64,000 bases of DNA from an uncultured Acidobacteriota bacterium (GCA_963729325.1 CAVSNS010000022.1:5901-69900), one strand, 5' to 3'; numbered from the stretch's first letter, positions 2,450 through 17,189 are shown. The notes: generated by a model not told the origin, from the sequence alone. Numbers and translations are program-made.

Positions 2450-5212
2450 GTGAACAACCGCTCTCAGTCGTGGAGAGAACTGAGCGTCCGAGCCAAGGTT
2501 TTTATTAGCCTGGTCGTGGCGATAGGCACCAGTGTGCTCCTGTATGGGGCCGTGAACCCGACCAGCAAGAACATCGCTCAATTCATTTGCTATCTGCTGA
2601 TCGCGATTCTGGCTTCACGTCTCAAAGTCAATCTGCCCGGGATCACGGGCACGATGTCGGTGAACTTCCTGTTCATTCTTCTTGGAGTGTTGGAGCTGAG
2701 TCTCACGGAGACCCTGGTTCTGGGAACTGCCGCTCTACTGATTCAATGTTTCTATCGAGATCGCCCCAGCGCACTCCAAGTGACATTCAATATCTGCGCC
2801 AGCGCGTTTTCTATCGCGGTGGCGTACGGCGTGTATCACTTTGCCCTGTCGCAAGGGCGAATAAAGAGTCATCCATCGTTATTGGTAATCGCGGCGTCCA
2901 CGTACTTCATCGCTAACACCGGTTCGATTGCCGGCGTGATAGCGCTCACCGAGCACAAGTCACTGAAGAAAATCTGGGTGCAGTGTTACTTCTGGTCCTT
3001 CCCCTACTACCTTGTGGGTGCGGGATTCGCTGGCACCTTGGGATGGTTCAACCGTACGTTCGGCTGGCAAACGTCGCTGCTGGTGGTGCCGGTCATATAC
3101 CTCTTCTACCGTTCGTACCGTCTCTACCTGGGAAAACTGGAGGACGAGAAGCGTCACGTGGAGGAGATGGCAAACCTGCACTTGCGGACCATCGAAGCGC
3201 TGGCCTTGGCCATTGAGGCCAAAGACCATACCACGCACGATCACCTGCAGCGAGTGCGCGTCTATGCCATTGAAGTTGCCAAAGAATTGGGAGTAACCCC
3301 AGAAGAGATGGAAGCTCTGCACGCGGCAGCGCTATTGCATGATATTGGAAAGCTTGCCGTGCCTGAGCACATCATCTCCAAGCCCGGACGCCTGACCCCA
3401 GAAGAATTCGAGAAGATGAAGATTCATCCGGTGGTCGGGGCGGAGATTTTAGAGCGGGTGCGATTCCCTTACCCGGTAGTGCCGATTGTGCGGGCGCACC
3501 ATGAGAAGTGGGACGGAACCGGATATCCGTTTGGCCTGAAAGCCACCGAGATCCCGATCGGAGCGCGCATCCTTTCGGCAGTGGACTACCTGGACGCGCT
3601 AGCATCCGACCGCCAGTACCGCCGCGCCTTACCGTTGGACGAAGTCGTTAGGCGTCTTTCTGACGAATCCGGGAAATCTTTTGATCCAAAAGTGGTGACG
3701 GTCTTACAAAAGCGATATCGTGACCTCGAAAAACTGGTCGAAGCCCATTTCGGACATGTGGCTCCATTGCGGCTCTCGACTGACGTAAAGGTGGAACACG
3801 GGGTCGCACCCGCCGCCGGCTTTGAAGACATTACGGTCAAAGATGCTCCAGGCCAGGAGGCTACTTTCCTCTCCTCTATTGCGGCTGCACGGCAGGAGGC
3901 CCAGACCCTTTTCGAACTGAGCCAGGACTTAGGGGCTTCGCTCAGCCTGGACGAAACCTTGTCGGTTTTCTCGGTGAAGCTTAGACGGCTTGTGCCTTAC
4001 GATGCCATCGCCATCTACGTCAAGCGTGGTGCGGAATTAGTTCCAGAGCATGTGAGCGGTGACAATTTCCGCTTGTTCTCGTCGCTTCGCATCCCGCTGG
4101 GCCAAGGACTCTCCGGCTGGGTGGCGGAGAACATGAAACCGATCATCAACGGAAATCCGTCGGTTGAGCCAGGATATCTGAACGATCCGACGAAATTCAG
4201 CACTTTGCGCTCGGCCATGGCGATCCCGCTGGAGGGGTTAGCCGGAGTAGTCGGCGTGCTCGCCCTTTACCACGCGGAGGTAGACGCATTCACTTCCGAT
4301 CACCTGCGAATTCTGTTGGCGATCAGTTCCAAGATGGCCCTGGCCATCGAAAACGCGCTGAAATACGAGCAAGCGGAGAGTTCCGCCACTACCGACTATC
4401 TCACGGGATTGCCGAACGCCCGGTCACTGTTTCTGCAACTCGACCGCGAGCTGGCGCGTTGCAAACGGGACAACTCGACTCTAATCGTGATGGTCAGCGA
4501 TATGGATGGTTTCAAGCAGATCAACGACCGCTTCGGTCATCTGGAGGGCAATCGTGTACTGCGCCTGTTCGCGCAGGCTTTAAAGGACAGCTGCCGCGAA
4601 TACGACTACGTGGCTCGGATGGGCGGCGACGAATTTGTGGTCGTAGCCCCCGGCCTGCCCGCGGACGCGGCTGCCAAGAAAGCCGAGCAATTGCGTGAAC
4701 TCGCCAAGCATGCCGGCAAAGAAGTCTGTAGCGAAGATATTCTTTCGCTGAGCGTAGGACAGGCGTCGTATCCCGGAGACGGACAGGATGCCGAAGGATT
4801 GCTCGCGGAAGCCGATCGCCGCATGTACCTGGAGAAACAGCGGCAACCCTCGCGAAAAAATCGCCGGCTCTATCCGCGGATGAAGTGCAGGGTCACGATT
4901 GAGTTGCAGCCCCACGATGAAGAAATCCCCGTCCTCGGTAATCTTATCGACGTCAGTCTGGGGGGCTGCTACGTGGAGACCAGCGCTATCTTGCCTCCTG
5001 GCTCCAAGCTTAAATTGGTTTTTTCCATCGACGATGGCAAGATGCAGGCTGAGGGCAGCGTGGTTCGAATCGATCCGGGATCGGGGATCGCGGTTCGGTT
5101 CAACGACATGAATCGCGAGGACCGCGAGAAAATGCACCGTGTGCTGGAGTTTGTGCACAATTCCACCATGTTCTACGACAACCGCTACTTCTCAAAACTG
5201 CTGAACCGTTGA
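2450..5212 (+). CDS. membrane-anchored HD-GYP / GAF / GGDEF / PilZ multidomain c-di-GMP signalling protein
   Basis: 920-aa ORF with a GTG start. About 220 aa of multi-TM N-terminus come first. HD-GYP motifs are HDIGK and HHEKWDGTGYP. A GAF-like block is LSGWVAENMKPII...AIPL. The GGDEF domain is MGGDEFVVV, with an RxxD I-site (REYD) five residues upstream. The C-terminal PilZ motifs are RLYPR and DVSLGG. Confidence 0.85.
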   Translation: MNNRSQSWRELSVRAKVFISLVVAIGTSVLLYGAVNPTSKNIAQFICYLLIAILASRLKVNLPGITGTMSVNFLFILLGVLELSLTETLVLGTAALLIQCFYRDRPSALQVTFNICASAFSIAVAYGVYHFALSQGRIKSHPSLLVIAASTYFIANTGSIAGVIALTEHKSLKKIWVQCYFWSFPYYLVGAGFAGTLGWFNRTFGWQTSLLVVPVIYLFYRSYRLYLGKLEDEKRHVEEMANLHLRTIEALALAIEAKDHTTHDHLQRVRVYAIEVAKELGVTPEEMEALHAAALLHDIGKLAVPEHIISKPGRLTPEEFEKMKIHPVVGAEILERVRFPYPVVPIVRAHHEKWDGTGYPFGLKATEIPIGARILSAVDYLDALASDRQYRRALPLDEVVRRLSDESGKSFDPKVVTVLQKRYRDLEKLVEAHFGHVAPLRLSTDVKVEHGVAPAAGFEDITVKDAPGQEATFLSSIAAARQEAQTLFELSQDLGASLSLDETLSVFSVKLRRLVPYDAIAIYVKRGAELVPEHVSGDNFRLFSSLRIPLGQGLSGWVAENMKPIINGNPSVEPGYLNDPTKFSTLRSAMAIPLEGLAGVVGVLALYHAEVDAFTSDHLRILLAISSKMALAIENALKYEQAESSATTDYLTGLPNARSLFLQLDRELARCKRDNSTLIVMVSDMDGFKQINDRFGHLEGNRVLRLFAQALKDSCREYDYVARMGGDEFVVVAPGLPADAAAKKAEQLRELAKHAGKEVCSEDILSLSVGQASYPGDGQDAEGLLAEADRRMYLEKQRQPSRKNRRLYPRMKCRVTIELQPHDEEIPVLGNLIDVSLGGCYVETSAILPPGSKLKLVFSIDDGKMQAEGSVVRIDPGSGIAVRFNDMNREDREKMHRVLEFVHNSTMFYDNRYFSKLLNR

Positions 5213-5900: not shown

Positions 5901-6473
5901 CTACTTTCGGCCGGGATGGAACTCCCCGCGGTTGGAGAATTGCGAGTAAGGCCATTCGTTCTTCTTGGTGGGCAACGTGGAAGAGGTAACGGGCGCAAGG
6001 GACGCCGGGTCGACTTCCCAATCCGCGGGAGCGGGATGAATGCACCAAACATTTCCAATCTGATCAAGCGCCAGCCCAACCAGCCAGTACTTATTCTCAG
6101 TTCCGAGCGGGACGCAGTTTGCCACGCGAGCAGTTGCGTGATTGCCACCGGGAAGATCGTCCAGCCGCACCGGCGTTCCTGGCTCCAGAGGGCATGGAAG
6201 GCGCACTCCGCAGCCGTGTGGGTTCACGACCAGAGTGTGGCAGCTTTCTGAGAGCTGTGTGGCCGGATCCAAACTGGTCACGCGAAGCGGGATTTGAGCT
6301 CGAACGCGTGTGCGGCGAGTCGGTGTATCGTGCGATTTTGCGGTTGATTCCATATTGCGGGGCTTGTTCAAGATTTTACGTGCGAAATTCTGATTGGCGT
6401 TGATCTCGCTGGCAGAAACGGACACCAAAGTAACGGAGGCGTCGCCCTTCAACTGTAATGCCGGCGAGCTCAA
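5901..6473 (-). CDS. PilZ-like domain protein
   Basis: 190 aa. An RRTRVR motif (RxxxR) is followed by VVNPHGCGV, a variant of D/NxSxxG. The beta-rich remainder resembles the C-terminal PilZ of the 920-aa protein. Confidence 0.5.
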   Translation of the reverse strand: MSSPALQLKGDASVTLVSVSASEINANQNFARKILNKPRNMESTAKSHDTPTRRTRVRAQIPLRVTSLDPATQLSESCHTLVVNPHGCGVRLPCPLEPGTPVRLDDLPGGNHATARVANCVPLGTENKYWLVGLALDQIGNVWCIHPAPADWEVDPASLAPVTSSTLPTKKNEWPYSQFSNRGEFHPGRK

Positions 6474-6528
6474 GGGCTGGGGGTGACCTTCCCGATTTCG
6501 GTCGCCTCAGGAAGACTCTTCGCGCCTT

Positions 6529-7623
6529 TTAAATGGCGACCAGCTGAATTTGAATGAGCGGACCGGAACTATTTGCTCGGGCCTTGCGGAGCATGTTCGC
6601 GGAGGGAATGCCGGTGCGATGGAACGACTTCTCGCAATCCGCGGTCGAGGGCCCGCGCATGCTGCCTTCCATGTAGGCAAGACCGGGACAGCGAGTGCAG
6701 GTGCCAACATGGCTACAAGTCGAGCATACGGGTAGGTCTTTAGCGCGAATCGAGCGAACCTCATGCAAGGCCGGCGAATCGCGCCAGATGTCGATGAATT
6801 TCTGTTTTCGTACATTGCCACTGGGCAGGGGAAACTGCACGCAGGGAAAAACGTCGCCATAGGGAGTGATGTAGGCCGCTGTGTGACCGGCACTGCAAGG
6901 ATATCCGTCCATGATACCCTCGTCGGGCGGGGGCGGGGGGGCACAAAATTTTTCTACGTTTCCCACGAGGCCCGGATTGTGAAAAACTGCATTCAACTCT
7001 GAACCAGGAATACGCAAACTGAGGATTGAAGTGTCTCCATCCATCTTCGGAGTGATCGTCGGATCCAAAGTGTAGGTAACCCCGAGCTCGCGGGCCAGTG
7101 CCTGCACTCCTGCATGGTCGCGGCTGTTGGCCGTCATCAGAACATTAGCGATCACAACCTTCAAGCCCTGTAATTTCAGAAAGCGAATCGCTTCCACACT
7201 CCGCTTCAGCGAGCCCGGTAGTTTAGTGATAGCGTCATGCACTTCGGAGCGGTGGGAGTAGATGCTGATTTGTATGTTCTCGACTCCCAACTCCACCATC
7301 CGTTTGGCTTCACGCTGGCGGATCATCACGCCGTTGGTCTTGATTCTGACATTGAAGCGCAGGCGACGGGCATATTCCAGAATGTCGAAAAAGTCGCGTC
7401 GCATCAGCACTTCCCCGCCACTGAGGGTCAGAAAAAAAGTGCCTGCCTCGGCCAGTTGATCCAGCACGTCTTCGATCTCGGCGGTGCTCATTTCGCCGTG
7501 ATCGTCGTGATCCAGATAGCAGTGAACGCAGCGTTCGTTGCAACGGTACGTTACGTCCAGATGGATGGCGAGAGGAACACCCAGTTCCATGGCCCGCTGA
7601 TTCATCTGCTGCATGAGACTCAT
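6529..7623 (-). CDS. radical SAM / SPASM-domain peptide maturase
   Basis: The CNERCVHC motif (CxxxCxxC) lies near the N-terminus. A Cys-rich C-terminus (CSAGH...FPCVQ...CSTCSHVGTCTRCPG) is typical of SPASM auxiliary clusters. The ATG at 7621-7623 overlaps the upstream PqqD stop (ATGA). The ORF track extends the gene to 7647. Confidence 0.85.
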   Translation of the reverse strand: MSLMQQMNQRAMELGVPLAIHLDVTYRCNERCVHCYLDHDDHGEMSTAEIEDVLDQLAEAGTFFLTLSGGEVLMRRDFFDILEYARRLRFNVRIKTNGVMIRQREAKRMVELGVENIQISIYSHRSEVHDAITKLPGSLKRSVEAIRFLKLQGLKVVIANVLMTANSRDHAGVQALARELGVTYTLDPTITPKMDGDTSILSLRIPGSELNAVFHNPGLVGNVEKFCAPPPPPDEGIMDGYPCSAGHTAAYITPYGDVFPCVQFPLPSGNVRKQKFIDIWRDSPALHEVRSIRAKDLPVCSTCSHVGTCTRCPGLAYMEGSMRGPSTADCEKSFHRTGIPSANMLRKARANSSGPLIQIQLVAI

Positions 7624-7949
7624 GCTGTCTCCCTGGACCCAGTACATGGATCATCGATCGGACGATCCGAAACCAGCAAAATGCCGTGGGGGGAAAGCTC
7701 TTCGACGAATCGCTCGGCGTCGCGGAGTGCCACGCCGGGTTCGACCTCGAACTGCTCGATGACGCCGCCTACGATTTCGGAAAGTGGAGTGCGGCCGTCT
7801 GCCGACTGCCAGATGGCGGTGGCCACCTCATTCAGGGTGAAGAAGGTGGAGTCCACGGCGGACATGATCATCATCTCTCCGCCCAGCATTCGAGCGGCAA
7901 TGGCGGAACTGCGGGCAATGTATTTATTACTCATTGGATCAAGTCCCAA
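7620..7949 (-). CDS. PqqD-family peptide chaperone (RRE-type)
   Basis: 109 aa. FFTLNEVATAIWQSADGRTPLSEIVGGVIEQFEVEPGVALRDAERFVEELSPHGILL matches the PqqD winged-helix pattern. The gene is translationally coupled to the radical SAM gene. Confidence 0.75.
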   Translation of the reverse strand: MGLDPMSNKYIARSSAIAARMLGGEMMIMSAVDSTFFTLNEVATAIWQSADGRTPLSEIVGGVIEQFEVEPGVALRDAERFVEELSPHGILLVSDRPIDDPCTGSRETA

Positions 7950-8086
7950 ACCCGCTGGTCAGGAACGAACGTCAGCCGCCTTACCATAACACTTTCGACG
8001 AACTCACAGGCGGAGCGAAAAAGCATTTTGACCAACTTCGGGTAGTGGGCTAATTCTGTGTTGCTGCGTCAAATCTTTCCGTCATT

Positions 8087-8266
8087 CTAGGCCGAGGGTG
8101 AAATTAGATCCCAAGGCACATCTCTGTGCAGAACGAATACACCCTTTGTGCTCTTAACATCAGCGACTTTCTTCTGAGGGTCAACTTTGGTTACTACATA
8201 TGTTCCGGCGTATTTTGGATCTTTGACAAGGACCGTATCGCCCACTTTTGGTGTTTGGGTCGGCAT
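8087..8266 (-). CDS. 59-aa small ORF of unknown function (below ORF-track cutoff)
   Basis: Hand translation: MPTQTPKVGDTVLVKDPKYAGTYVVTKVDPQKKVADVKSTKGVFVLHRDVPWDLISPSA. It has the same orientation as the PqqD gene and lies 137 nt upstream of it. Confidence 0.3.
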   Translation of the reverse strand: MPTQTPKVGDTVLVKDPKYAGTYVVTKVDPQKKVADVKSTKGVFVLHRDVPWDLISPSA

Positions 8267-8364
8267 GCAAATAGTTTCCCATAGCCCCGTTTACATTGCC
8301 AGTCGGTGGGATTTCAAACTACACCACTACCAGACTGCGCAGGACTTGACTGTCCGGATTACGA

Positions 8365-8697
8365 TTGGGAATGACCACACAGACTCGGAAGTTCATCGAA
8401 CTGGCCGACATCCTTGGGATGCGCTTCGATTGCAGGAAGTGCCGCGCCAGCCTATCGCTGCCGATGGAGAAAAGCCCAAGCCCACCCAGCGACTGCCCGA
8501 ATTGCGGCTGCGACTGGACGGAGATGCCCGACGGGACTGACCACAAAGAGGAATTCCAAGTGCTGTCGGACGCGCTGGCAGCAGTTTCCCGCTTGCATCT
8601 CGGTTGTGCGTTCACGCTCGAAATTAAGCCTGAGCCGCAAGCAATTCCCCCATCTCCCACACGTGATCCGTTAGTCCACTCTGCATCGCAGGCGTGA
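8365..8697 (+). CDS. hypothetical zinc-ribbon protein, 3' end overlapped by (possibly disrupted by) the IS
   Basis: CRKC...CPNCGC pairs are present. A coherent sequence runs to ...AFTLEIK and then into the antisense of the transposase 3' end. Confidence 0.3.
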   Translation: MGMTTQTRKFIELADILGMRFDCRKCRASLSLPMEKSPSPPSDCPNCGCDWTEMPDGTDHKEEFQVLSDALAAVSRLHLGCAFTLEIKPEPQAIPPSPTRDPLVHSASQA

Positions 8698-9619
8698 CGC
8701 GCAGAGTTTGATGAACGCGGCAGAAGTTGTACCAAGCGAAGTACAGAGTCACCGCAGCCTTGAGGTTATCGAGCTTCTTAGAGAACGCATTGGTAAGCCG
8801 TGTAAAACGACGCACGTGCATACGCAGACTCAAATTCGACCGCTCGATATGAGACGTGCTGATATGTGCGGGATCGGGCCGTCCATCGCGGACTTTGGAT
8901 ATAACCTCCGTGATGTGTCCTGGGGAGTACCGCTCATTCCCATGCTGGCCGTAGTCTCCGAAGAGCTTTACAAGCTGCGCGAAGTCCACAGTTCCGCCGA
9001 ACACGTCCTCGACTCCCCGCTCGTAGAAGTGAAAGCCATCAGTGGTCAACTGGAATCGGCCCGCTGCAAGGCGCTTCTGCAAGCCGGAGAGAAATGCCAT
9101 CGTGGTTTCGCGGGTGCGCTTCCCGATCTCGAAACAAGGGATCAGTTTTGTTTCCGGGTCAAGCGCGATGAAAATCCACTGGTCACCAAGTTCGGCGGGG
9201 TCGCCGCTGCGAACGTGCCGCGCCTTCTTGCCCACGTAGCACCAGAGTTCATCGCACTGCACGTAATTGGCTTTAACTCCGCGAACCTTGGAATCGAGAA
9301 CACGCTGCGCATTCGCCGCTGCCGTCACCATAAGAGACAAAATCGTGTTCTTGTGCAATCCTGTGAAACGCGAGATGGCGCGAATACTCATTCCCTCAAG
9401 CATGAGGGACAGGGCTTTTGCCGCAGTCTCGGGATCGGTGTGGTGGGAGCCGAACGCCTTAGGGCTAGTGGGATCGGCAAAGGTCGCGTGGCAAGAATTG
9501 CAGCGCCAGCGTTGAATGCGGCGCTTACCGAAGTACCCGAACTTTTTGCAGGTTTGGTGCTGGCACTTGAGGCAGGTCATGGGGTTTCTCCGCTTGCGTT
9601 CTGCGGAGAAACCAGCCAA
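8624..9619 (-). mobile_element. IS1-family insertion sequence, single-ORF transposase (element ends not determined)
   Basis: 331 aa. An N-terminal Zn-finger (CLKCQH...CNSCH) and an HTH (SIRAISRFTGLHKNT) precede a DDE region. That region ends HIERSNLSLRMHVRRFTRLTNAFSKK, which resembles the IS1 InsB tail [25 protein letters not shown]. Confidence 0.7.
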
Positions 9620-9859
9620 AATAGCTTTGGGTCTGAGGCGTGGGTCACTCCGCGCTTTGGATTAGCCCCGCAACCTGTTTGCGCAGGAAGCGGGGCACTG
9701 ATTGTTAAGGGTTATGGGTTATCCCGGTGGCACAACGGTAATTTCCACCGTGGGCCCCTGAGCAGTGAATCGAACAACGATCACGATTTTCACTGTTCTC
9801 CTTTCTCAAGAAAACGCTCTGCGCTCGAATCGCAGGGCGTTTCGCATTTGCGTCCAAAG

Positions 9860-10267
9860 TCATTTCGCGTTTCTCGGGGCGATGATCTGATCCGGAACCG
9901 GGCAATATCTTCCAACTTCACATTCGTAAAGCTGGCGGCTCTTTGTGAGTCGCTTGAGGGCGCTATGAATGACTGCCAGCGGGTTCGAGTATCGGCTCAG
10001 GTCGTATCCCGCCAGCGCAAGATTATTTCTTATATCCGTTGGGCTCATGGGCACGGGGGCCATGCGGACGGCGGTGAGCACGATTTCCTGAAACCCAACA
10101 ATATCGGCCTGGGCGTGGTGAAAAAGATTCCTAGAAGTCGTGATCGCCAGGGACTTTACGAGCTGCTGAAGTCTTACAACTTCCATAGTCCAGTGATCGC
10201 GTTGTCTGATCGCAGAAAGAAGTTCCTCTCGGGCAGCGTTCAAAGCGTCATTGTATACATAGGCCAT
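9860..10267 (-). CDS. hypothetical protein
   Basis: 135-aa ORF with no recognisable motif. The C-terminus may be a winged helix. Confidence 0.3.
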   Translation of the reverse strand: MAYVYNDALNAAREELLSAIRQRDHWTMEVVRLQQLVKSLAITTSRNLFHHAQADIVGFQEIVLTAVRMAPVPMSPTDIRNNLALAGYDLSRYSNPLAVIHSALKRLTKSRQLYECEVGRYCPVPDQIIAPRNAK

Positions 10268-10472
10268 AAACTACAGCGAGGATATTATGCAATTGCATAA
10301 AAGTCAAGTAAATTCTGCAAAAGGAGTGGCCAAGCCTAGCTCATGGGATGAGGCGATACAAGAGGCTGAGCGGAAACTCCGAACTTCCACGACAAGAACC
10401 AAGCAGTTAGAAGCTGCCATTCGGACTTTTAGGGCACACAAGAGCAGCGGTTTGCCTTGGCCTCGCACAAAA

Positions 10473-11204
10473 TCAGCAACACGGAATTAGCCCAGTACCC
10501 AACTTCGCGTCCTCAGCGAAAAAGAGGATATTTCTGAGCAGGAGACGCGCGGCTTCGGGTGCGTCAACAGGCTCGATCTTGTTCTGGGGTCCCTTGACGA
10601 GAAAAAAAAGTGTGGATAGCTGCGCCGAGCAATTCTCGCCGACGCGCGCGAGTTCCCCGGCAAAGGGAGTTCCGCAAGCGCGATAACCGTACTGAGTGCG
10701 GCGAATGTAGGAGATTTCGTCGGTTAGCACGGTGACATCACGAGGCGCGAGACAGGCAATCGTGGTTTTGCCCGCTCCGGAGATGCCAGAGAAAAGAAAC
10801 GCCCGGTCATTCCGGACTGCGCTCGCGGCGTGGAGGAGGAATCCGCCTTCCTTGGCCAGAATCAAAGTGTGTACGATGCGCAGCACGGAATCGATGGAGT
10901 AGGGGTTGGCTGACTGACGAATGCGTCCCCGCCCTGCCCGAGGGTCCCAGTGCGCACGAAAATCTCCTCGGCGTAAGCGCCACATTCCATCCCGCATTTC
11001 GACCCGAACGTCGTCCTCCGATTCCGACTCCGGCAACTCGGACGGCGCGGTCAGATCCACATCAAACTCGAACCTGGGTTGTGAAGCAGACCCGACAAAA
11101 CCGGCGTACCTGCTAACCAGCATGTCACGAAAGATTCGATCCTGAGTGCGCAGCAGGATAGAAAAGCCCCCGATTTCCACCGCGATCTCATGATCTTGGG
11201 GCAC
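10473..11204 (-). CDS. HPr kinase C-terminal-like (HprK-related) kinase
   Basis: 243 aa with a GTG start. HAASAVRNDRAFLFSGISGAGKTT is a P-loop in the context typical of HprK-related kinases found in RiPP and lasso loci. Confidence 0.7.
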   Translation of the reverse strand: MPQDHEIAVEIGGFSILLRTQDRIFRDMLVSRYAGFVGSASQPRFEFDVDLTAPSELPESESEDDVRVEMRDGMWRLRRGDFRAHWDPRAGRGRIRQSANPYSIDSVLRIVHTLILAKEGGFLLHAASAVRNDRAFLFSGISGAGKTTIACLAPRDVTVLTDEISYIRRTQYGYRACGTPFAGELARVGENCSAQLSTLFFLVKGPQNKIEPVDAPEAARLLLRNILFFAEDAKLGTGLIPCC

Positions 11205-11239
11205 TCTCTCTGGCTCCGTGTTTTACAGTTCTCCTGCCT

Positions 11240-11737
11240 TCACGCTGGCCCGGCAACTGTAGCTTCAAAACGAGATCTGGAACTCCTGCGCTGAGCGTCG
11301 AGTCGCATGACGATACGCTGGAGCAGATTGCAATGACAAAGCATCCGGCCGAAAATTTGACGGAATGGACCAAGCTTCAGCGTAGGTGCAGGGAACCAAC
11401 TGTCACGTTGAATTTTCGTAACCTTACCCAGCAATTCGCCTGGACGCACGGGCGGATCGGCCTGCGGCATGCAGTCACCGCGAGTAATAAGGAACTCGTG
11501 CTCTAATCTGGTTTTGCTGAGAACACGATGAACAAAGAAGCGACCATCGCGCAAGAAAAGCACGACGTCACCGTGTTCCATTTGATCAAAATTACTATAT
11601 TGGATAGTAAGAAGGTCGCCTGGCCACAACGTGGGTAGCATGCTGGCTCCCGTGGCGCGCAATTTTAATTTGCCGCTCGACTGCAGCCCCTCGGCCGCCA
11701 GACTGCACTTTCGCTGCTCGCAGGCCTCAGCGTTCAT
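11240..11737 (-). CDS. SipW-like (ER/archaeal-type, S26B) signal-peptidase-family protease without an obvious TM anchor
   Basis: 165 aa. GASMLPTLWPGD is the Ser nucleophile box. FVHRV has His where bacterial SPase I has Lys, as in Bacillus SipW (THRI). A TRGDCMPQAD box follows. Confidence 0.65.
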   Translation of the reverse strand: MNAEACEQRKCSLAAEGLQSSGKLKLRATGASMLPTLWPGDLLTIQYSNFDQMEHGDVVLFLRDGRFFVHRVLSKTRLEHEFLITRGDCMPQADPPVRPGELLGKVTKIQRDSWFPAPTLKLGPFRQIFGRMLCHCNLLQRIVMRLDAQRRSSRSRFEATVAGPA

Positions 11738-11747
11738 CGGTAACAGC

Positions 11748-11927
11748 CTATGACACCTTCTTGTGACCGTGGCACTGATGCTGGGTGCCGCTGATCTTTC
11801 CGCAAGCCAAGGCCAGCGTCTCGAATGCCCGCTCGTAGCGAAACTCTGGCCTTTTGTACGGCTTCTTGGCTTTAGTCTGGCTCGGTGCGCTCCTGTCTTC
11901 TGCAGAAGGCCGGTTCCTCTGAGTCAT
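11748..11927 (-). CDS. candidate RiPP precursor peptide, 59 aa (below ORF-track cutoff)
   Basis: Hand translation: MTQRNRPSAEDRSAPSQTKAKKPYKRPEFRYERAFETLALACGKISGTQHQCHGHKKVS. An in-frame stop lies 5 codons upstream of the ATG. By my hand count about 70 percent of third positions are G/C. The ORF ends 10 nt upstream of the peptidase gene on the same strand. Confidence 0.5.
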   Translation of the reverse strand: MTQRNRPSAEDRSAPSQTKAKKPYKRPEFRYERAFETLALACGKISGTQHQCHGHKKVS

Positions 11928-12077
11928 AGAAATACCAATGCGCTAGACGGTTACGTCTGCCTTGCGAACGAAGCACGAGTCCTAAGATAGCGCAGTGTAC
12001 AACAGACAGGAAGCCAAATGCTAAACCTTTGTTAACTCCTCGGACGCCCGGAAGCCAAGCCCGACTGGCCTTGCGTC

Positions 12078-12887
12078 TTAATAGAAAGAGAGCGTGCCGA
12101 GAAACCTTGCGCGCCTTAAGGTGTGGGAAAAAATCAGGAGGCTGAAAGGCAGCAGTGTCAGGGAAAAAATGCTCAGCACCATGATTTCGGGTTCCAGAGC
12201 TGCGAAACTCGCGCCTTCAAGAAGTGCCATGCGCATTCCGTAGAGGGAGTGAGTGATGGGAATCAGGTCGGACAGCACGCGCAGCGCCCAGGGGAGAGTC
12301 GCGACGGGAAACAGGGCTCCGGTCAGAAACCACACGCCGGACCCAAGCAACCACACGACTGCAGATCCCTTTTGAATGGCCAATTGCAAGGCGGCAGCGA
12401 GAATGCCGAGCGCGACCGCGATCAGGAGCGACAGCAGGAAGATCAGTGCGCAAGCTGCGACATTTGGGCTGGGAATTGCGCCTCGCCATAACAGAAGGCC
12501 TGCTCCGATAAAAAGGAGCAGTTGGATCGTATTTCGGCCAAACGCGGAAAGGGCACTCAGTAGAACCAACAACGGCGCGGATGTAGAGGTGGTGACCAGT
12601 ATTTCCAGAGTGCCCGTCTGTTGCGCTTCCTGCACGATCTGCAGGAAAGCGCTGATACCCAGGAGCCAAAATGTGTAGAAGCCGGTGCCCACCAGCACGA
12701 AGGGGAAGTAATCCATTCCCTCGGGACGGAATGAGGGACCGATAGCACGAGAGAGGTAATAAAACGCGGCCAGTTCGGCTGCCGTTCCGGCCGCGGTAAT
12801 CAGAAAGCCTGAGCGATAGCGGATGGCGGTCAAGAGGTCGCGGCGCAGGATGGCGAGCATTTTGTCGAGCGGGCCGGCCAGTCTCAT
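12078..12887 (-). CDS. ABC-2 type transporter permease
   Basis: 269 aa with about 6 hydrophobic helices. It overlaps the upstream ATPase gene by 4 nt. Confidence 0.7.
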   Translation of the reverse strand: MRLAGPLDKMLAILRRDLLTAIRYRSGFLITAAGTAAELAAFYYLSRAIGPSFRPEGMDYFPFVLVGTGFYTFWLLGISAFLQIVQEAQQTGTLEILVTTSTSAPLLVLLSALSAFGRNTIQLLLFIGAGLLLWRGAIPSPNVAACALIFLLSLLIAVALGILAAALQLAIQKGSAVVWLLGSGVWFLTGALFPVATLPWALRVLSDLIPITHSLYGMRMALLEGASFAALEPEIMVLSIFSLTLLPFSLLIFSHTLRRARFLGTLSFY

Positions 12888-13681
12888 CGCCAGCTCCTGG
12901 AGGTCAACGGTGCCGCCTCATCCAGTTCACCAGTGGTCTGAAAATAGAAGGAGCGCAGCTCGTCCGCATCCGCGCCAGTAATTTTCCGGTAGCCCGCCAG
13001 TCGGCCCTTATCCAGCACGGCAGCAAAATCGCCCACCGCGGCGGCCTCGTTGAGGCTGTGTGTGGCCAGAATGACAGTCGAGCCTCCGGCGGGAAGGGCG
13101 CGGATGAGAGTCTGAAAGTGGGTCGCCGCCGCTGGGTCAAGGCTGCGCGTTGGCTCGTCCAGCAAGATGACTGAGGGCTCTTTAATGAGTGCCCGCGCGA
13201 TGCCCAAGCGCTGGTACATGCCACTGGAAAACTTCATGACCAGAGTGTCCGCAGCGTCGAGCAAGCCGGTCCGTTCCAGCACAAGTTCAATTTGACGAGG
13301 TCGTGAGCGGCGAGGGACATCATCCAAGGCGGCAAAGAAATCGAGATTCTCCCGAGCCGAAAGTCGAGGGAAAAATGACCTTTCAGTGGAAACCGCAAAA
13401 CCCACATGTCGACGCACATGATCGGGATCTGTGTAGGTGTCGGCGCCTTCGACCAGGACACTCCCGGCATCGGGAAGGAGCATGGTGGATACCAGCTTCA
13501 GAATGGTTGTTTTTCCACTGCCGTTGGGACCCAGCAGAACAAGCACCTTGCCGCTGGAAACTCGAAGGGAGATCCCATCCAAGGCATGAGTTTCTCCTCT
13601 TCGTTCCCGGCCCATCCAGTTAAACATAGCGGGGCGGTGCCGGAAAACTTTGCTGACCGACTGGAGGATGACACTATCCAT
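12884..13681 (-). CDS. ABC transporter ATP-binding protein
   Basis: Walker A GPNGSGKTT, signature FSSGMYQRL and Walker B ILLDEP are present. The likely start is MDSVILQSV at 13681. The 113-aa Arg-rich extension in the ORF track is probably not translated. Confidence 0.85.
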   Translation of the reverse strand: MDSVILQSVSKVFRHRPAMFNWMGRERRGETHALDGISLRVSSGKVLVLLGPNGSGKTTILKLVSTMLLPDAGSVLVEGADTYTDPDHVRRHVGFAVSTERSFFPRLSARENLDFFAALDDVPRRSRPRQIELVLERTGLLDAADTLVMKFSSGMYQRLGIARALIKEPSVILLDEPTRSLDPAAATHFQTLIRALPAGGSTVILATHSLNEAAAVGDFAAVLDKGRLAGYRKITGADADELRSFYFQTTGELDEAAPLTSRSWR

Positions 13682-13752
13682 TTTTCTATTGCAAGAGTAT
13701 CCCGCAAAGACAACGGTATTATAGTGGCGATCGCAGAACTTTCCGCGCCAGA

Positions 13753-14979
13753 GTGGAGCGGCTAATTTCGAAAAAACCACCCTCCCGTATGCCCTCTGCC
13801 CCGCCAATGCCGACAGTCCCGCCAGCCAAGCCTGAGCGACCACAGGTGCGAGCATTCGTCTCCAGCACCGAGTTCGACTTGTTGCTCGCCTGCTGCGCCC
13901 ACGCTTCTGGCGACGAACGTATCCGCGAGATTCTTGAAGGTCCGCTGGACTGGAAGCGGCTTCTCCAGCTTGCCGGGCACCACGCCGTGATACCTCAGCT
14001 ATATCAACGTCTGTCGGCATCCAATGTCATACCCCAAGCGTTGCCTTTGCTTCAGCAGCACTACGAAGCTAACGCGCGGCAGACCCTCTGGCTCACTCGC
14101 GAATTGCTCAGGATTCTCAGTCACTTGCAGAGAAACAGCATTGAGACTCTGCCATATAAGGGTCCCGTCCTGGCTGAAATTCTCTACGGCAATGTTGCGC
14201 TGCGTCAGTTTTCGGATCTGGATCTGCTGATCCACGAGGCGGACCTGGCGAAAGTCAAGGCCGCACTTCTCGAACTGGGATACAAGCCCGCGCTTCAGCT
14301 GACCCCGTGGCAAAACCGCGCTTATCTCGAGTCCGGGTATGAATACGCATTCGACAGCTCTCTCGGCCGGAACCTGTTGGAAATGCAGTGGCGGATTCTG
14401 CCACGTTTCTATTCGATCAACTTCGACGTCGACGCGTTTTTCAGCCGGTCCATGGTCCTGAGTTTAGGCGGACATTCTTTGCGCACGCTTTGCAAGGAAG
14501 ACTTAATGGTGGTGCTCTGCGTTCACGCCGCCAAGCATGTATGGGTACAGCTTTCCTGGCTGTGCGACATTGCGGAGTTATCCCAGTCAGTCGACTGGGT
14601 CGTCGTTCAGGACCACGCCCAGCGGTTGGGCATCGAACGAATCGTAGCGGTGACTTTCATCTTGGCTGCCCGACTTCTTGGGACACGCATGCCGCAACCA
14701 GTACAGGAGCGCATCCGCAACGATCGCGCTGCCGAAGGGCTTGCAGATAAAATTCTGCCAATCGTGGCGCAGAGAACGGAATACCACACGGAATCGATGG
14801 CTTATTTCCGGCTAATGATGGATGTGCGAGAACGGTGGCGGGATCGATTGCGTTTTGTGGGGCGATTGGCTTTCACCCCAAGCGTCGGGGAGTGGAGCTC
14901 GGTCCGATTGCCCGGCCCTCTGTTCCCGTTGTATCGCGTCGTGCGTCTGATGCGATTGGCGCGAAGATTGATTTCATAG
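13753..14979 (+). CDS. NTP_transf_5-type uncharacterised nucleotidyltransferase
   Basis: 408 aa. TEFDLLLACCAH...DWKRLLQLAGHHAVIPQLY and DLDLLI...KHVWVQLSWLCD fit my recollection of this family. The gene is divergent from the ABC operon. Confidence 0.65.
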   Translation: MERLISKKPPSRMPSAPPMPTVPPAKPERPQVRAFVSSTEFDLLLACCAHASGDERIREILEGPLDWKRLLQLAGHHAVIPQLYQRLSASNVIPQALPLLQQHYEANARQTLWLTRELLRILSHLQRNSIETLPYKGPVLAEILYGNVALRQFSDLDLLIHEADLAKVKAALLELGYKPALQLTPWQNRAYLESGYEYAFDSSLGRNLLEMQWRILPRFYSINFDVDAFFSRSMVLSLGGHSLRTLCKEDLMVVLCVHAAKHVWVQLSWLCDIAELSQSVDWVVVQDHAQRLGIERIVAVTFILAARLLGTRMPQPVQERIRNDRAAEGLADKILPIVAQRTEYHTESMAYFRLMMDVRERWRDRLRFVGRLAFTPSVGEWSSVRLPGPLFPLYRVVRLMRLARRLIS

Positions 14980-15000
14980 CCGACCGAGTTCTGGAAACTA

Positions 15001-15822
15001 TCACCGTTTCGCATTCTTCCTTGCCCGCGCCATACCCGCCCGCAGACCTCGTTCGACGGCTCGCGTATATCCAGACTTCTTCATGCTGGCCATGGCTGCC
15101 GCCGAAATACCGCCCGGCGTGGCTGCCTCGTGCAGCAGATTCTGCAGCGATGTCTTGCCCTCACGCCAGGCGATAAGACCATCCGTGAGAGCGTGCAGGG
15201 CTGCAATCTGTGCCATTCTGCGACTGAGCCCCAACTTCTCGGCGGCTGCCGTCAATACCGCAAGGGCGTGATAGCCGTGGCTACAGGAGTAGGTCACGGT
15301 GAAGGCATCGAACTGGTTCTCAGGAATTTCTACAACGGGCCCGACTTTGCCAAAAAATTGCTTTACCTTTTGCTGTTCCGAGCGTGAGAGCTCGGGGTCA
15401 AACACCACCGCTGTCAGACCGCGCCGACTGCGGCATACCGGACTGGGCATGGCACGGGCCCAACGCACCGGCGGTCCCGCTCCAGCCCGCAACTTGGCCA
15501 GAGGAACACCCGCTGCGAGGCTGACGGCGGTCACGGGGTGGCTAATCTTCCCGATTCTGTCTAGCAATTCACGGACTGAGTTCGGCCTCACCGCGATGAT
15601 CAGAAGATGAGCTTGTTGCACCGCCTTGCCGAGATTATGTTCGACGATCACTCTGTACTGCTGTTTGAGACGCAGCACTTTGCGAGGATGGCGGTCATGC
15701 ACGACGATGGGCTTCTCATATCCAGAGAGCCGGAGGCCGGCCACAAGTGCGCTCGTGATCCGACCTCCGCCTAAAAAGACGGTCGCACTTTTTCGCACGG
15801 CTTTCACGCGAGGTCTACGCAA
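15001..15822 (-). CDS. proC: pyrroline-5-carboxylate reductase family protein
   Basis: The Rossmann N-terminus is FLGGGRITSAL. MPSPV...GLTAV and ATPGGISAAAM are P5CR signature regions. Confidence 0.7.
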   Translation of the reverse strand: MRRPRVKAVRKSATVFLGGGRITSALVAGLRLSGYEKPIVVHDRHPRKVLRLKQQYRVIVEHNLGKAVQQAHLLIIAVRPNSVRELLDRIGKISHPVTAVSLAAGVPLAKLRAGAGPPVRWARAMPSPVCRSRRGLTAVVFDPELSRSEQQKVKQFFGKVGPVVEIPENQFDAFTVTYSCSHGYHALAVLTAAAEKLGLSRRMAQIAALHALTDGLIAWREGKTSLQNLLHEAATPGGISAAAMASMKKSGYTRAVERGLRAGMARARKNAKR

Positions 15823-17144
15823 GCCCGGTCCACAGCCTCGATCAGCAACGCAATATCTTCATCCCTGTGCGCGGTGGAGATGATCCAGTGCAGTCCATTG
15901 GATGGCGTCATGTAGATGCCCTTGTCGAGCAAGCGATGGACGAAGCGAGAATAGCGCTGAGTATCCACATAGGTGCAGTAATCGCGATAGTCGTGAATGG
16001 CCTCCCGATCGGTGAAATAGATCTGGAACATGGGGCCAAACCCCTGCACGATCGCCTTGACGTTGCGCCGGCGAAATACTTCGCGCAATCCAGCAATTGC
16101 CGCATCGCCCATTGCATGAAGCTTGCGATATGCACCATCGGTAGATAGTAGATCGAGGTTAGCGGCGACCACCTTCATGGTAAGGCGGTGTCCGTTGAAG
16201 GTTCCATAGTGCAGGACCATGCCGTCGCCCCAGCGCATGCGATCGAGAATAGAGCGCGGACCCGTCACGGCGCCCACGGGAAATCCGGCGCCCAGCGCCT
16301 TGCCGAAGGTGCTGATATCGGGCTGGAGTCCGTAGTACTCCTGACAACCGCCAGGCGCGTAGCGGAACCCGGTGACGACTTCATCGAGAATGAGCAGCAC
16401 ACCGTAGTCGCGAATGAGTTCGCGGAGTCGCTTGAGAAAGCCATCGCGCGGGAGAATGCAGCCCATGTTGGCCATGATTGGCTCGGTGATAGCGGCCGCG
16501 AGTTCGCGGCCATGCTCGCGCAACACGCGCTCAATGCTGTCCACGTCATTCCATGGCGCGAGCACCACGTCGTCAAAGGTGGTCGGCGGAATGCCTTGCG
16601 AGTCAGGAATCCGGGCCGGGTTTTCCCGCGAACCCAGTTGCTCCAAGGGATGGCCGTGTGCATTCAAAAGATAAGGATCGTACCAGCCGTGATAGTGCCC
16701 TTCGAACTTCAGGAATTTGTGCCGTCCCGTGTGGGCACGCGCTAGCCTCAAGGCCAGCATGGTGGCTTCGCTGCCGCTGTTGGTGAAGCGAACCACTTCA
16801 GCGGATGGGACCATTCGGCAGAAGCGCTCGGCGGCGTCAACCTCTGCCGAGGTTGCGGCCGCAAAGTGTGCGCCCTCGGCCGCTGCCTGCGAAACCTTGT
16901 CAACCAGCTTGGGATGCGCATGGCCATGGATGAGCGCGCCAAACGACATCATGAAATCCACGTATTCGTTGCCGTCGGCGTCCCAGACGCGCGAACCCTG
17001 GCCGCGCTCGAGAAAGATTGGACCAGCAGTGTATACGGATAAGCCGCGCGAAGGGGAGTTCACGCCTTCGACCAGCGATTGTTGAGCGCGGCGAAACCAT
17101 TTCTGCGAGCGAGAAGCATGGCGGCTTGGAGCTGTCTTCGTCAA
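15804..17144 (-). CDS. class-III PLP aminotransferase, glutamate-1-semialdehyde 2,1-aminomutase-like
   Basis: 446 aa. FTNSGSEATMLALRLAR, LILDEVVTGFR and DISTFGKALGAGFPVGA (PLP Lys) are present. Confidence 0.8.
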   Translation of the reverse strand: MTKTAPSRHASRSQKWFRRAQQSLVEGVNSPSRGLSVYTAGPIFLERGQGSRVWDADGNEYVDFMMSFGALIHGHAHPKLVDKVSQAAAEGAHFAAATSAEVDAAERFCRMVPSAEVVRFTNSGSEATMLALRLARAHTGRHKFLKFEGHYHGWYDPYLLNAHGHPLEQLGSRENPARIPDSQGIPPTTFDDVVLAPWNDVDSIERVLREHGRELAAAITEPIMANMGCILPRDGFLKRLRELIRDYGVLLILDEVVTGFRYAPGGCQEYYGLQPDISTFGKALGAGFPVGAVTGPRSILDRMRWGDGMVLHYGTFNGHRLTMKVVAANLDLLSTDGAYRKLHAMGDAAIAGLREVFRRRNVKAIVQGFGPMFQIYFTDREAIHDYRDYCTYVDTQRYSRFVHRLLDKGIYMTPSNGLHWIISTAHRDEDIALLIEAVDRACVDLA

Positions 17145-17189
17145 TGCTCCTCAGTGCCCACGTAACGGACCGAGCGTGCCGGCAACGAC

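Follow-up and report, generated by a model that had tools for sequence, protein, structure and literature searches.

The genes of the locus

The window, a 64,000-nucleotide stretch of DNA from an uncultured Acidobacteriota bacterium, contains between positions 6,529 and 14,979 a group of genes that lie on the minus strand, with the exception of an NTP_transf_5 nucleotidyltransferase gene on the plus strand. All of the genes named in a preliminary description of this locus were present, and profile searches with Pfam and NCBIfam models upheld the family assignments made there.

The radical SAM (rSAM)/SPASM enzyme (364 aa; 6529..7623, minus strand; Pfam Radical_SAM 9e-23 and SPASM 6e-12; start codon and length checked) has a CxxxCxxC motif close to the N-terminus and a full set of SPASM cysteines. 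It is without a fused RiPP recognition element (RRE), which implies that, as with PqqE and MftC, the enzyme would depend on a discrete PqqD protein. No NCBIfam equivalog model was matched above its cut-off, the best full-length alignment being to MftC (125 bits versus 265), and the closest solved structures by sequence were SkfB, SuiB, PqqE and CteB.

The adjacent gene encodes a discrete PqqD-type RRE of 104 aa (7620..7934, minus strand; Pfam PqqD 1e-14). Its TGA stop codon overlaps the ATG of the rSAM gene in the sequence GCATGAGT, the ATGA coupling reported in the preliminary description. The best sequence matches in the PDB were the lasso B1 proteins TbiB1 (2e-3) and PbaB1 (3e-3). By BLASTP, the protein was 25-30% identical to LppB of the linear polyphosphorylated peptide (LPP) pathway of Bacillota (LppA/K/B/S/D/N; Popov et al., Nat Commun 2026, PMC13381572) and to Acidobacteriota RREs in the supplement of that study.

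A P-loop kinase-like protein of HprK/PEPCK fold, cut to 243 aa, is encoded at 10473..11204 (minus strand). It scored below the cut-off of every curated NCBIfam model, with weak matches to HprK_rel_A (2e-5), HprK_rel_B (4e-5) and ScmC (1.5e-4); the precomputed Pfam assignment is PF27840 (ScmC). The P-loop (GxSGxGKTT) and the residues D162-E163 are invariant in the family alignment. When the AF2 model of the intact orthologue P0004 (pLDDT 84.5) was used in a fold search, ATP-PEPCK folds were matched with probability 1.0. Because PEPCK was returned rather than HprK, the role of protein or peptide kinase is a prediction only.

Upstream of the kinase-like gene lies that of a cytoplasmic S26 serine peptidase of the archaeal/SipW type (165 aa; 11240..11737, minus strand; Pfam Peptidase_S24, 25.1 bits versus a cut-off of 23.3), which also matched the NCBIfam model of archaeal-type signal peptidase I (sigpep_I_arch, 6e-11). 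The catalytic triad S32, H70 and D88 is at least 95% conserved in 25 orthologues. The protein was 32-33% identical by BLASTP to two LPP cluster-1 SpI peptidases (E 3e-14 and 4e-12) and 27-33% identical over the four LPP SpI peptidases compared; the corresponding values for true SipW were 27% and 4e-5. The enzyme is predicted to be the leader peptidase, a role that has direct precedent since the LPP pathway has been partly characterised in Bacillota (PMC13381572).

The putative precursor peptide is a 59-aa ORF (11748..11927, minus strand) that matched no family in profile searches, with a leader ending in KKPYKRPEFRYERAFET and a predicted 22-residue core, LALACGKISGTQHQCHGHKKVS. Among distinct homologous sequences, the C-terminal Ser is found in 29 of 29 and exactly two Cys in 28 of 29; the spacing of the two Cys and the length of the tail are nearly fixed, and the leader carries a conserved YxxPxF...FET motif. 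Thus, of the earlier characterisation of this ORF as Cys/His-rich, the two cysteines are retained among homologues but the His-richness is not.

An ABC-2 type permease of 269 aa (12078..12887, minus strand; Pfam ABC2_membrane and ABC2_membrane_3) and an ABC transporter ATPase (12884..13681, minus strand; Pfam ABC_tran 8e-32) complete the minus-strand genes. The ATPase ORF extends mechanically to 14020; after the start codon was checked, a protein of 265 aa from the ATG at 13681 was considered likely, and orthologues have 264-265 aa. The NTP_transf_5 gene (13753..14979, plus strand; Pfam PF14907 8e-59; likely start at ATG 13789 or 13807) is divergent, as originally described, and its DxD motif (D156/D158) is kept in 13 orthologues.

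An IS1-family element interrupts the operon

The PqqD and rSAM genes are separated by 2.5 kb from the remaining genes, and mobile DNA lies between. The preliminary description had therefore cautioned that the two halves may be independent, and had assigned the spacer to an IS1 element and about 2 kb of unrelated small ORFs. The IS1 assignment was borne out, whereas the small ORFs proved not to be separate from the element: four unannotated ORFs at 8087-8266 (minus), 8365-8697 (plus), 9860-10267 (minus) and 10287-10490 (plus) all lie within a single IS1-family element of 2,459 bp (8041..10499), inserted in the 3′ end of the kinase-like gene. An IS1 transposase is encoded at 8624-9619 (minus strand; NCBIfam NF033558, 101.5 bits versus a cut-off of 100). 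The element is bounded by inverted ends of 26 nt (8041-8066 and 10474-10499; 26-27 nt, 93% complementary), the sequence of which occurs twice in the window against an expectation of zero. Directly outside these ends, an 8-bp target-site duplication, CAACTTCG, was read from the sequence (left copy 8033..8040, right copy 10500-10507).

The final 8 residues and the stop codon of the shortened kinase-like protein come from the end of the element. The displaced 3′ end of the gene, severed by the insertion, was located at 7931..8032 (minus strand) as 33 codons and a stop (VKMLFRSACEFVESVMVRRLTFVPDQRVWDLIQ*). P0004 ends in exactly this sequence, VKMLFRSACEFVESVMVRRLTFVPDQRVWDLIQ, which also agrees with the family consensus and contains its near-invariant F and W. 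In silico excision of the element yielded an ORF of 268 aa, the homologues having 265-268 aa, with a stop codon overlapping the start codon of PqqD. The PqqD gene thus has ATGA overlaps on both sides, with the downstream rSAM gene and with the upstream ancestral kinase gene.

The element was not found in the orthologous loci L002-L007, where gene order is uninterrupted; relatives 97%, 85% and 71% identical have exactly the same order. At the empty sites of L002 and L003, CAACTTCG is present as a single copy. The empty sites and the restored ORF overlapping the PqqD start indicate that both halves were once one operon. Its ancestral order was NTP_transf_5 (divergent)/ABC ATPase, ABC-2 permease, precursor, S26 peptidase, kinase-like protein, PqqD RRE and rSAM/SPASM. 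The locus is one operon with translational coupling, which a recent IS insertion has split, shortening the kinase-like protein as well.

The 2.5-kb separation, with an IS between, could also be read as two unrelated groups, rSAM/PqqD and kinase/peptidase/transporter/NTP-transferase, brought together by chance. This was ruled out by the empty-site comparison, and we give it next to no credence: the spacer is exactly one IS with its target duplication, the ORF regained on excision overlaps the PqqD start, and in IS-free loci the genes are contiguous and overlapping. The copy of the cluster in this genome is probably impaired, as the insertion removed the last 33 residues of the kinase-like protein and parted PqqD and rSAM from the upstream operon. 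Intact orthologues of the cluster are present in close relatives.

Conservation of the cassette

Of the 28 genome loci, almost all from Acidobacteriota, 23 have the genes in the order precursor, S26 peptidase, kinase-like protein, PqqD, rSAM/SPASM, with the precursor kept in both position and sequence; the precursor was also recovered as 12 metagenome proteins. In the other five loci no precursor was recognised next to the enzymes, the genes of which were present or cut by contig ends. The S26 peptidase, kinase-like protein, PqqD and rSAM genes each occur in every one of the 28 loci with enough DNA, with two gaps: the S26 gene was not detected in L034 (Thermomonas), and the rSAM gene was not found in L035 (Rikenellaceae), on a 5.7-kb contig. 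In every comparable locus both gene groups lie together with no IS between them, and in all IS-free loci the cassette genes are contiguous and overlapping. As almost all of the loci come from one phylum, this co-localisation may partly reflect shared ancestry. The NTP_transf_5 gene and the ABC pair are not constant neighbours: roughly half of the loci have the NTP_transf_5 gene no more than 10 kb from the cassette, its position varying, and the ABC pair adjoins the cassette only in the closer relatives of the window. Frequent neighbours are exporters (ABC-2 or RND) and a large secreted protein of unknown function.

The core is about as strongly conserved as the enzymes, over several Acidobacteriota orders, which is unusual for an antibiotic RiPP. 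The cassette also abounds in soil metagenomes, where related proteins number more than 7,000. Together with the frequent large secreted protein and the PqqD/rSAM-SPASM/peptidase logic, which matches that of PQQ and mycofactocin (as seen in the NCBIfam matches), these observations would suit a conserved physiological product, such as a peptide-derived cofactor, metal-binding peptide or signal, rather than a secreted antibiotic. Against this, ABC-2 or RND exporters often adjoin, and the cassette neighbourhoods lack a conserved redox enzyme that could employ such a cofactor. We consider a physiological product somewhat unlikely; it concerns the role of the product and is compatible with the biosynthesis proposed below.

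Search for a lasso cyclase

The preliminary description had found no Asn-synthetase-like lasso cyclase in the window, and the ORF scan and phmmer search agreed. No Asn_synthase was present among the ORFs of at least 426 aa; ten were scanned, and the remaining three were assigned from syntenic calls or annotation. The latter were a 446-aa ORF (15804-17144) and a 1039-aa ORF (20874-23993), whose counterparts in syntenic loci were called as Aminotran_3 and FAD-oxidase genes, and an annotated 920-aa GGDEF/HD protein (2450-5212). In the Thermomonas MAG locus L034, 7-9 kb downstream, an Asn-synthetase-like gene occurs with another kinase-like gene and another PqqD; phmmer with this neighbouring cyclase matched nothing in the six-frame translation of the window.

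The L034 arrangement, the nearness of the RRE to lasso B1 proteins, the YxxPx[L/F] leader motif and the tailoring of paeninodin-type lasso peptides by HprK-like kinases and NTP_transf_5 enzymes would all fit a tailoring and export sub-cluster of a lasso pathway, with the cyclase and B2 protease elsewhere in the genome. This is very improbable. An Asn-synthetase-like gene lies nearby in just 1-2 of about 30 loci, so that it is not a conserved partner, and positions 7-9 of the predicted core lack a conserved Asp or Glu for macrolactam closure. Moreover, nearly all loci have their own leader peptidase and class-defining rSAM, and the LPP precedent indicates that such a module works without a cyclase.

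Proposed pathway

The core reading, a RiPP-type locus in which a lasso-style RRE, an HprK-like kinase and NTP_transf_5 are combined with an rSAM/SPASM enzyme and an S26 peptidase, with no lasso cyclase, is supported. Taken as a whole, the locus is probably best explained as one operon for the biosynthesis of a RiPP, into which an IS1-family element has inserted in this genome. The operon, kept among soil Acidobacteria, would make a small modified peptide.

We infer every chemical step of the pathway. The PqqD-type RRE is predicted, from lasso and LPP precedent, to bind the leader through its YxxPxF motif and to hand the peptide to the rSAM/SPASM enzyme, which would modify the 22-residue core, most likely by thioether cross-linking through the two conserved Cys. 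The HprK/PEPCK-fold kinase would phosphorylate Ser, the best candidate being the Ser that invariably ends the precursor, in parallel with paeninodin and pseudomycoidin, and NTP_transf_5, in loci having one, may decorate the phosphate. The soluble S26 peptidase is expected to cut off the leader behind the conserved FET, as LppS does in LPP, and the ABC-2 pair would export the product.

The two Cys could instead form a disulfide, with the rSAM target elsewhere. A related reading is a plain LPP-type pathway to a linear phosphorylated peptide, with the rSAM peripheral or acting like MftC on the C-terminus and the two Cys in a disulfide. The peptidase, RRE, kinase, NTP-transferase and FET-type leader have their counterparts in LPP, some Bacillota LPP precursors without an rSAM also have two Cys in the core, and MftC, to which the rSAM aligns best over its full length among the NCBIfam models, has a C-terminal residue as its target. 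We nevertheless think this unlikely: the rSAM gene is coupled to the RRE and present in every genome locus but L035, the Cys spacing and tail length hardly vary, and the enzyme appears to rely on the discrete PqqD. The locus is read as a putative new variant, an LPP-like module with an rSAM maturase.

Comparison with known systems

The cassettes of this kind had been described as defined in silico only. This holds in part: the S26/RRE/kinase/NTP-transferase module was partly characterised as LPP in May 2026, while for the version with rSAM/SPASM no description and no known product were found in the literature searched.

The in silico SynChlorMet (SCM), HprK-related kinase A/B and GeoRSP systems (TIGRFAMs/NCBIfam) share the same ordered triad of ScmC-type P-loop protein, PqqD homologue and rSAM/SPASM. 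Their equivalogs scored far under cut-off here (ScmC 21 versus 125, ScmD 25 versus 100, ScmE 96 versus 400, GeoRSP rSAM 118 versus 400), and this cassette has one rSAM gene, not two. To our knowledge, the SCM cassette has no assigned precursor, and S26 peptidase and NTP_transf_5 are not described as its members.

Sactipeptide- and ranthipeptide-type systems (SkfB, CteB, AlbA) likewise combine an rSAM with full SPASM and a Cys-containing core, and SkfB is the closest solved structure by sequence. Unlike those maturases, the enzyme here has no fused N-terminal RRE and would use a discrete PqqD; the kinase, NTP-transferase and S26 peptidase are foreign to those systems, and the thioethers here are putative.

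Paeninodin/pseudomycoidin-type lasso pathways resemble this locus in having a B1-like RRE for a [Y/W]xxP leader, an HprK-like kinase alongside a precursor that ends in Ser, an NTP_transf_5 enzyme and an ABC exporter. PsmK and PadeK act as kinases on the C-terminal Ser, and hexose addition to the phosphate requires PsmN (PMC6993621). In contrast, this cluster is without an Asn-synthetase-like cyclase, B2 protease and acidic ring-closing core residue, has a serine peptidase as the predicted leader remover, and contains an rSAM/SPASM enzyme.

Along with this lasso tailoring, the closest known system is the Bacillota LPP pathway, in which LppS cuts after FET in an RRE-dependent manner, LppK polyphosphorylates core Ser, and the leader motif is YxxPxVLxHQxIxFET (PMC13381572). 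Features in common are the S26 leader peptidase, which is soluble and of archaeal/SipW type, a discrete RRE resembling those of lasso pathways, an HprK-like P-loop kinase, an NTP_transf_5 enzyme, an ABC exporter and a KKPYxxPx[V/F]...FET precursor leader. They differ in that the rSAM/SPASM enzyme, absent from LPP, is strictly associated here and coupled to the RRE; that YxxP and FET stand two residues closer together in the leader here; and that Ser3, phosphorylated in LPP, is not conserved, the C-terminal Ser being invariant instead. The core here is short (22 aa) and conserved whereas that of LPP is hypervariable, and where LPP has an MsbA-like pump as exporter, this locus has an ABC-2 pair. 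Finally, LPP was reported as restricted to Bacillota, whereas the host phylum here is Acidobacteriota.

Gene content of the locus

All genes named in the preliminary description were recovered by ORF listing and profile searches. The minus strand carries a radical SAM (rSAM)/SPASM enzyme (6529-7623; Pfam Radical_SAM 9e-23, SPASM 6e-12) and a PqqD-type RiPP recognition element (RRE; 7620-7934; Pfam PqqD 1e-14); the TGA stop codon of the PqqD gene overlaps the ATG of the rSAM gene, which is thereby translationally coupled to the RRE. On the same strand lie a P-loop kinase-like protein (10473-11204; Pfam PF27840 (ScmC), with weak NCBIfam HprK-family matches), an S24/S26 peptidase (11240-11737; above the Pfam cut-off, best NCBIfam match archaeal-type signal peptidase I at 6e-11), a 59-aa ORF encoding the precursor (11748-11927), and an ABC-2 permease (12078-12887) and ABC ATPase (12884-13681), both identified with Pfam. 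An NTP_transf_5 gene (13753-14979; PF14907 8e-59) is transcribed divergently on the plus strand. The catalytic motifs of the cassette enzymes are intact, and the S26 peptidase conserves the triad S32, H70 and D88. The observation of a RiPP-like locus that combines lasso-type accessory enzymes with a radical SAM maturase is confirmed, and its interpretation supported. Counts of predicted promoters and terminators over 6300-15100 did not differ from those in shuffled sequence.

An insertion sequence divides a single operon

The two halves of the locus had been suspected of being independent, being separated by an IS1 element and apparently unrelated small ORFs. A repeat search located inverted repeats of 26-27 nt at 8040-8066 and 10474-10500, and direct reading of the ends defined an element of 2,459 bp (8041-10499) flanked by a direct 8-bp target duplication, CAACTTCG. 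The end sequence occurs twice within the window, both times at the ends of the element, which is present there as a single copy. With its IS1-type transposase (8624-9619; NF033558, 101.5 bits vs a cut-off of 100), terminal inverted repeats and a target duplication of the 8-9 bp typical of the family, the element belongs to IS1. All of the small ORFs between the halves lie inside it.

An IS1-family element of 2,459 bp is a long one. This one encodes four further ORFs of 59 aa (8087-8266, minus strand), 110 aa (8365-8697, plus), 135 aa (9860-10267, minus) and 67 aa (10287-10490, plus), none of which has a Pfam or NCBIfam match and which may be passenger genes. Exact-product look-ups of the transposase with both start-codon choices found no other contig.

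The effect of the insertion on the kinase-like gene was read directly from the sequence. The final eight codons and the stop codon of the 243-aa ORF come from the right end of the IS. In silico excision of the element together with one copy of the duplication produced a 268-aa ORF with a new C-terminus, LVKMLFRSACEFVESVMVRRLTFVPDQRVWDLIQ, and a TGA that overlaps the ATG of the PqqD gene. This restored tail fits the family consensus and matches, residue for residue, the end of P0004, an intact orthologue of 268 aa and 85% identity. Contigs of close relatives contain the empty site with a single target copy, and the gene order there is uninterrupted: NTP_transf_5 (divergent), followed by ATPase, ABC-2 permease, small ORF, S26 peptidase, ScmC-like protein, PqqD and rSAM/SPASM, contiguous and with mostly overlapping stop and start codons. 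Thus, the two gene groups co-localise in relatives without the IS, and the ends of the element, the target duplication, the restored ORF and the empty site remove the doubt about independence: the two halves are one operon, split by an insertion sequence.

The insertion was common to the window and one ENA contig (L001) only. The window is 99.2% identical over PqqD-rSAM to L002, a related locus without the IS, and 96.0% identical over the remaining shared cluster region, and the insertion is therefore recent. Because the IS truncates the kinase and cuts PqqD and rSAM off from the genes upstream, the window copy is probably impaired, and was probably inactivated by the insertion. The insertion also provides a natural before/after pair that delimits the operon precisely.

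The cassette is conserved across Acidobacteriota

A locus search with a 14-sequence kinase alignment, limited to one genome per species and thus a sample rather than a census, returned at least 28 loci, comprising 26 from Acidobacteriota (Terriglobales, Bryobacterales, Acidoferrales and Sulfotelmatobacter), one from a Thermomonas MAG (L034) and one from a Rikenellaceae MAG (L035). To score conservation, every ORF of the loci listed was compared with the window proteins. Among these, the S26 peptidase, ScmC-like protein, PqqD and rSAM/SPASM enzyme follow in the same order in every locus whose sequence reaches far enough, with two gaps: the S26 peptidase was not detected in the Thermomonas locus, and the rSAM gene, present in every other genome locus listed, is absent from the 5.7-kb Rikenellaceae contig. 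Directly upstream, 23 of the 28 loci listed have a recognisable precursor; the surroundings of the enzymes yielded none in L008, L013, L015, L027 and L032. About half of the loci listed have NTP_transf_5 no more than 10 kb away, at varying positions, and the ABC-2 pair adjoins the cassette in some of them only.

Other genes recur at the borders of the cassette. RND efflux genes (a pump of ~1,050 aa and a partner of 370-460 aa) flank it in seven to eight loci (L009, L010, L014, L018, L021, L023, L030) and may serve for export or immunity in place of the ABC-2 pair. A second recurrent neighbour, present in about 19 of 30 loci (L026 7280-9217, L011 12408-14249, L030 6269-9010 and about 16 others), encodes a secreted Thr/Gly/Ala-rich protein of 600-900 aa with no Pfam match, conserved motifs in its N-terminal region and a C-terminus reading ...CAVKLTQAAL[E/Q]. 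Its gene immediately precedes the precursor or immediately follows the rSAM gene. Neither the window nor its closest relatives contain this protein; the corresponding place in them is taken by the ABC-2 pair and NTP_transf_5. A 920-aa protein with HD-GYP, GAF, GGDEF and PilZ domains (window 2450-5212) is conserved downstream of the cassette in relatives to ~70% kinase identity, beside a small ORF without a family match (5901-6473) in the same relatives; the two seem to reflect conserved synteny, not a role in the pathway. A phage-type tyrosine integrase (55259-56539; Phage_integrase 2e-22) is encoded well away from the cluster.

Some of the loci contain broken genes. In L001 (3228-4651) NTP_transf_5, intact in the window, is split into two ORFs, and in several long-read MAG loci (throughout L027 and L033) the cassette genes are in fragments. 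Sequencing frameshifts are a more likely cause of both than decay.

The kinase-like protein

The kinase assignment is the weakest of the family calls. NCBIfam matches to HprK_rel_A (2e-5), HprK_rel_B (4e-5) and ScmC (1.5e-4) were all far under the cut-offs, and PF27840 is the precomputed Pfam call for the window protein and its 120 best homologues. P0004, the intact orthologue, was modelled with AlphaFold2 (pLDDT 84.5), and the model matched ATP-dependent PEP carboxykinases (PEPCK) with probability 1.0. The P-loop fold of PEPCK is common to HprK. A PDB profile search with the kinase family returned P-loop and PEPCK matches alone and none to HprK. In the family alignment GxSGxGKTT and the following D-E are invariant; the truncated window protein is without the near-invariant F and W of the consensus, and its homologues are 265-268 aa long. 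The family is large, with more than 7,000 related proteins in a word-indexed search and 141 clusters at 50% identity (E below 1e-30) in an exhaustive one. A lanthipeptide-like route, with elimination of Ser/Thr driven by the kinase, was set aside, there being no lyase/cyclase and no conserved Ser/Thr partner.

The precursor peptide

A word-based search with the 59-aa precursor returned 12 proteins, and most precursors were taken from the loci instead. The 29 distinct sequences align as ...KKPYxKPxFRxERVFET followed by xALxCGK-x7-C-xxNRKxS. All 29 end in Ser; in 28 there are two Cys and no more, most often spaced C-x9-C; 7 residues follow the second Cys in 26, and 22 residues follow FET in 22. 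The small ORF had been characterised as Cys/His-rich: the two Cys are indeed conserved, and the His-richness of the window copy is not. There are no acidic residues in the window core, LALACGKISGTQHQCHGHKKVS, nor is any conserved among the 29 precursors. If released by a cut after FET, this core would have a monoisotopic mass of 2302.18.

Two sites of leader removal were considered. Cleavage after A-L-[A/S/T], just before the first Cys, would accord with the AxA rule of signal peptidases. In the linear polyphosphorylated peptide (LPP) pathway, however, described in Bacillota in 2026, the S26 peptidase LppS cuts after the Thr of FET, and only with the RRE protein LppB presenting the peptide (PMC13381572). 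These experiments favour a cut after FET, which is ranked first and defines the core as used here.

In locus L018 (9297-9980) no stop codon separates the precursor frame (...KKPYEKPSFRFEQVFVTSALSCGKVAGAVESGCSRAKFES) from the S26 peptidase gene, and the one runs on into the other. Either the two genes are naturally fused or this long-read MAG is misassembled at that point.

A proposed pathway

By precedent from characterised pathways, the RRE would bind the YxxPxF leader, the S26 peptidase would remove the leader after FET, the kinase would phosphorylate the C-terminal Ser, NTP_transf_5 would decorate the phosphate, and the product would be exported. In paeninodin and pseudomycoidin it is the C-terminal Ser that the kinase phosphorylates, and PsmN (NTP_transf_5) is needed for addition of hexose to the Ser phosphate (PMC6993621); the invariant C-terminal Ser of the cassette precursor points to the same phosphorylation site. 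The least certain step is the rSAM chemistry, which is most economically read as thioether cross-linking that involves the two Cys. Against it, some LPP cores from clusters lacking an rSAM enzyme likewise carry two Cys, and the best full-length alignment of the rSAM protein was to MftC (NCBIfam).

We tentatively suggest, with rather less than even confidence, that the cassette represents an undescribed RiPP class: a short rSAM-cross-linked peptide, its invariant C-terminal Ser phosphorylated and then decorated and its leader removed by a signal-peptidase-like enzyme, in a family that is widespread in soil Acidobacteriota and that either gave rise to the Bacillota LPPs or is parallel to them. 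On this reading, the strong conservation of the core would point to a shared physiological role for the product, in metal binding, signalling or surface biology, and not to strain-level warfare. Acidobacteriota rank with the most abundant bacteria of soils, and to our knowledge almost no peptide natural products are known from them. The locus is relevant to natural-product discovery in this phylum; the cassette is very common in soil metagenomes and, since the precursor is identifiable and conserved, a ready target for heterologous expression.

Comparison with known systems

The reported absence of a lasso cyclase from the window was borne out. No Asn_synthase match was found among window ORFs of at least 426 aa (ten ORFs scanned, two more read from the syntenic Aminotran_3 and FAD-oxidase genes, and the 920-aa GGDEF/HD protein taken from its annotation), and phmmer with the cyclase of the Thermomonas locus gave no match in the six-frame translation of the window. 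An Asn-synthetase-like gene is nearby in only one or two of about 30 related loci listed, and profile searches of the cluster genes returned no family match to a transglutaminase-like B2 protease. The precursors also differ from those of lasso peptides in having no conserved Asp/Glu at core position 7-9 for ring closure. The lasso-like features are the discrete PqqD/B1-type RRE, whose best PDB sequence matches were TbiB1 and PbaB1, and the leader, in which PYxKPxF fits [Y/W]xxPx[L/V/I/F].

Immediately downstream of the cassette, the Thermomonas locus (L034 11813-20407) contains NTP_transf_5, a fused ABC transporter, another P-loop kinase-like gene (16536-17522), another PqqD (17964-18311, minus strand) and an Asn-synthetase-like gene (18908-20407, minus strand). 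This looks like a neighbouring lasso-type cluster and echoes the co-location of LPP and paeninodin (lasso) clusters reported in Bacilli; it is an exception among the listed loci.

The ScmC/PqqD/rSAM triad resembles that of the SynChlorMet cassette, a system defined in silico (TIGR04248-04251), but all the equivalog scores were far below the cut-offs (ScmC 21.2 vs 125, ScmD 25.2 vs 100, ScmE 96.1 vs 400 and ScmF 62.7 vs 400 bits), and the broad family PF27840 alone applies. The rSAM/SPASM maturase and Cys-containing core recall sactipeptides and ranthipeptides. Literature searches on ScmC/SynChlorMet, PF14907, HprK with PqqD and radical SAM, or Acidobacteria with SPASM and kinase returned nothing relevant.

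In LPP clusters, LppS is a SipW-like S26 peptidase, LppB a discrete RRE, LppK an HprK-like kinase that puts several phosphates on core Ser3, and LppN an uncharacterised NTP transferase; an ABC pump is also encoded, and the leader motif is YxxPxVLxHQxIxFETxxS (PMC13381572). The same study calls LPPs restricted to Bacillota; its main text does not contain "radical", "SPASM" or "Acidobacteria", and its supplement includes, without analysis, a few Acidobacteriota S26 peptidases beside "other" RREs. The Rikenellaceae locus (L035 1822-5684) encodes, in this order, PqqD, a kinase-like protein with a weak Hpr_kinase_C match, an S26-like peptidase and an MsbA-type ABC transporter, and looks like an LPP-type cluster outside Bacillota; a precursor was not found in it.

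The window leader shares KKPY..P.[F/V] and FET with LPP leaders. Its S26 peptidase is 32% identical (BLASTP, E 3e-14) to an LPP cluster-1 SpI peptidase, vs 27% (E 4e-5) to a true SipW, and NTP_transf_5 and an ABC exporter are also present, both being variable across related loci. The window differs in having an ABC-2 type pair, not an MsbA-like one, and a YxxPxF-to-FET spacing two residues shorter. Core position 3 in the window family is Leu and position 4 is A/S/T/I, whereas LPPs are phosphorylated on Ser at position 3. Finally, the cassette includes an rSAM/SPASM enzyme, whereas LPP clusters have no radical SAM or other class-defining enzyme and their product is linear. The closest relative of the cassette is nevertheless the LPP pathway, whose type of machinery is thereby extended well beyond Bacillota, and the cassette joins three separately studied RiPP lines: lasso-type leader recognition, the signal-peptidase/kinase (LPP) pathway and radical SAM cross-linking.
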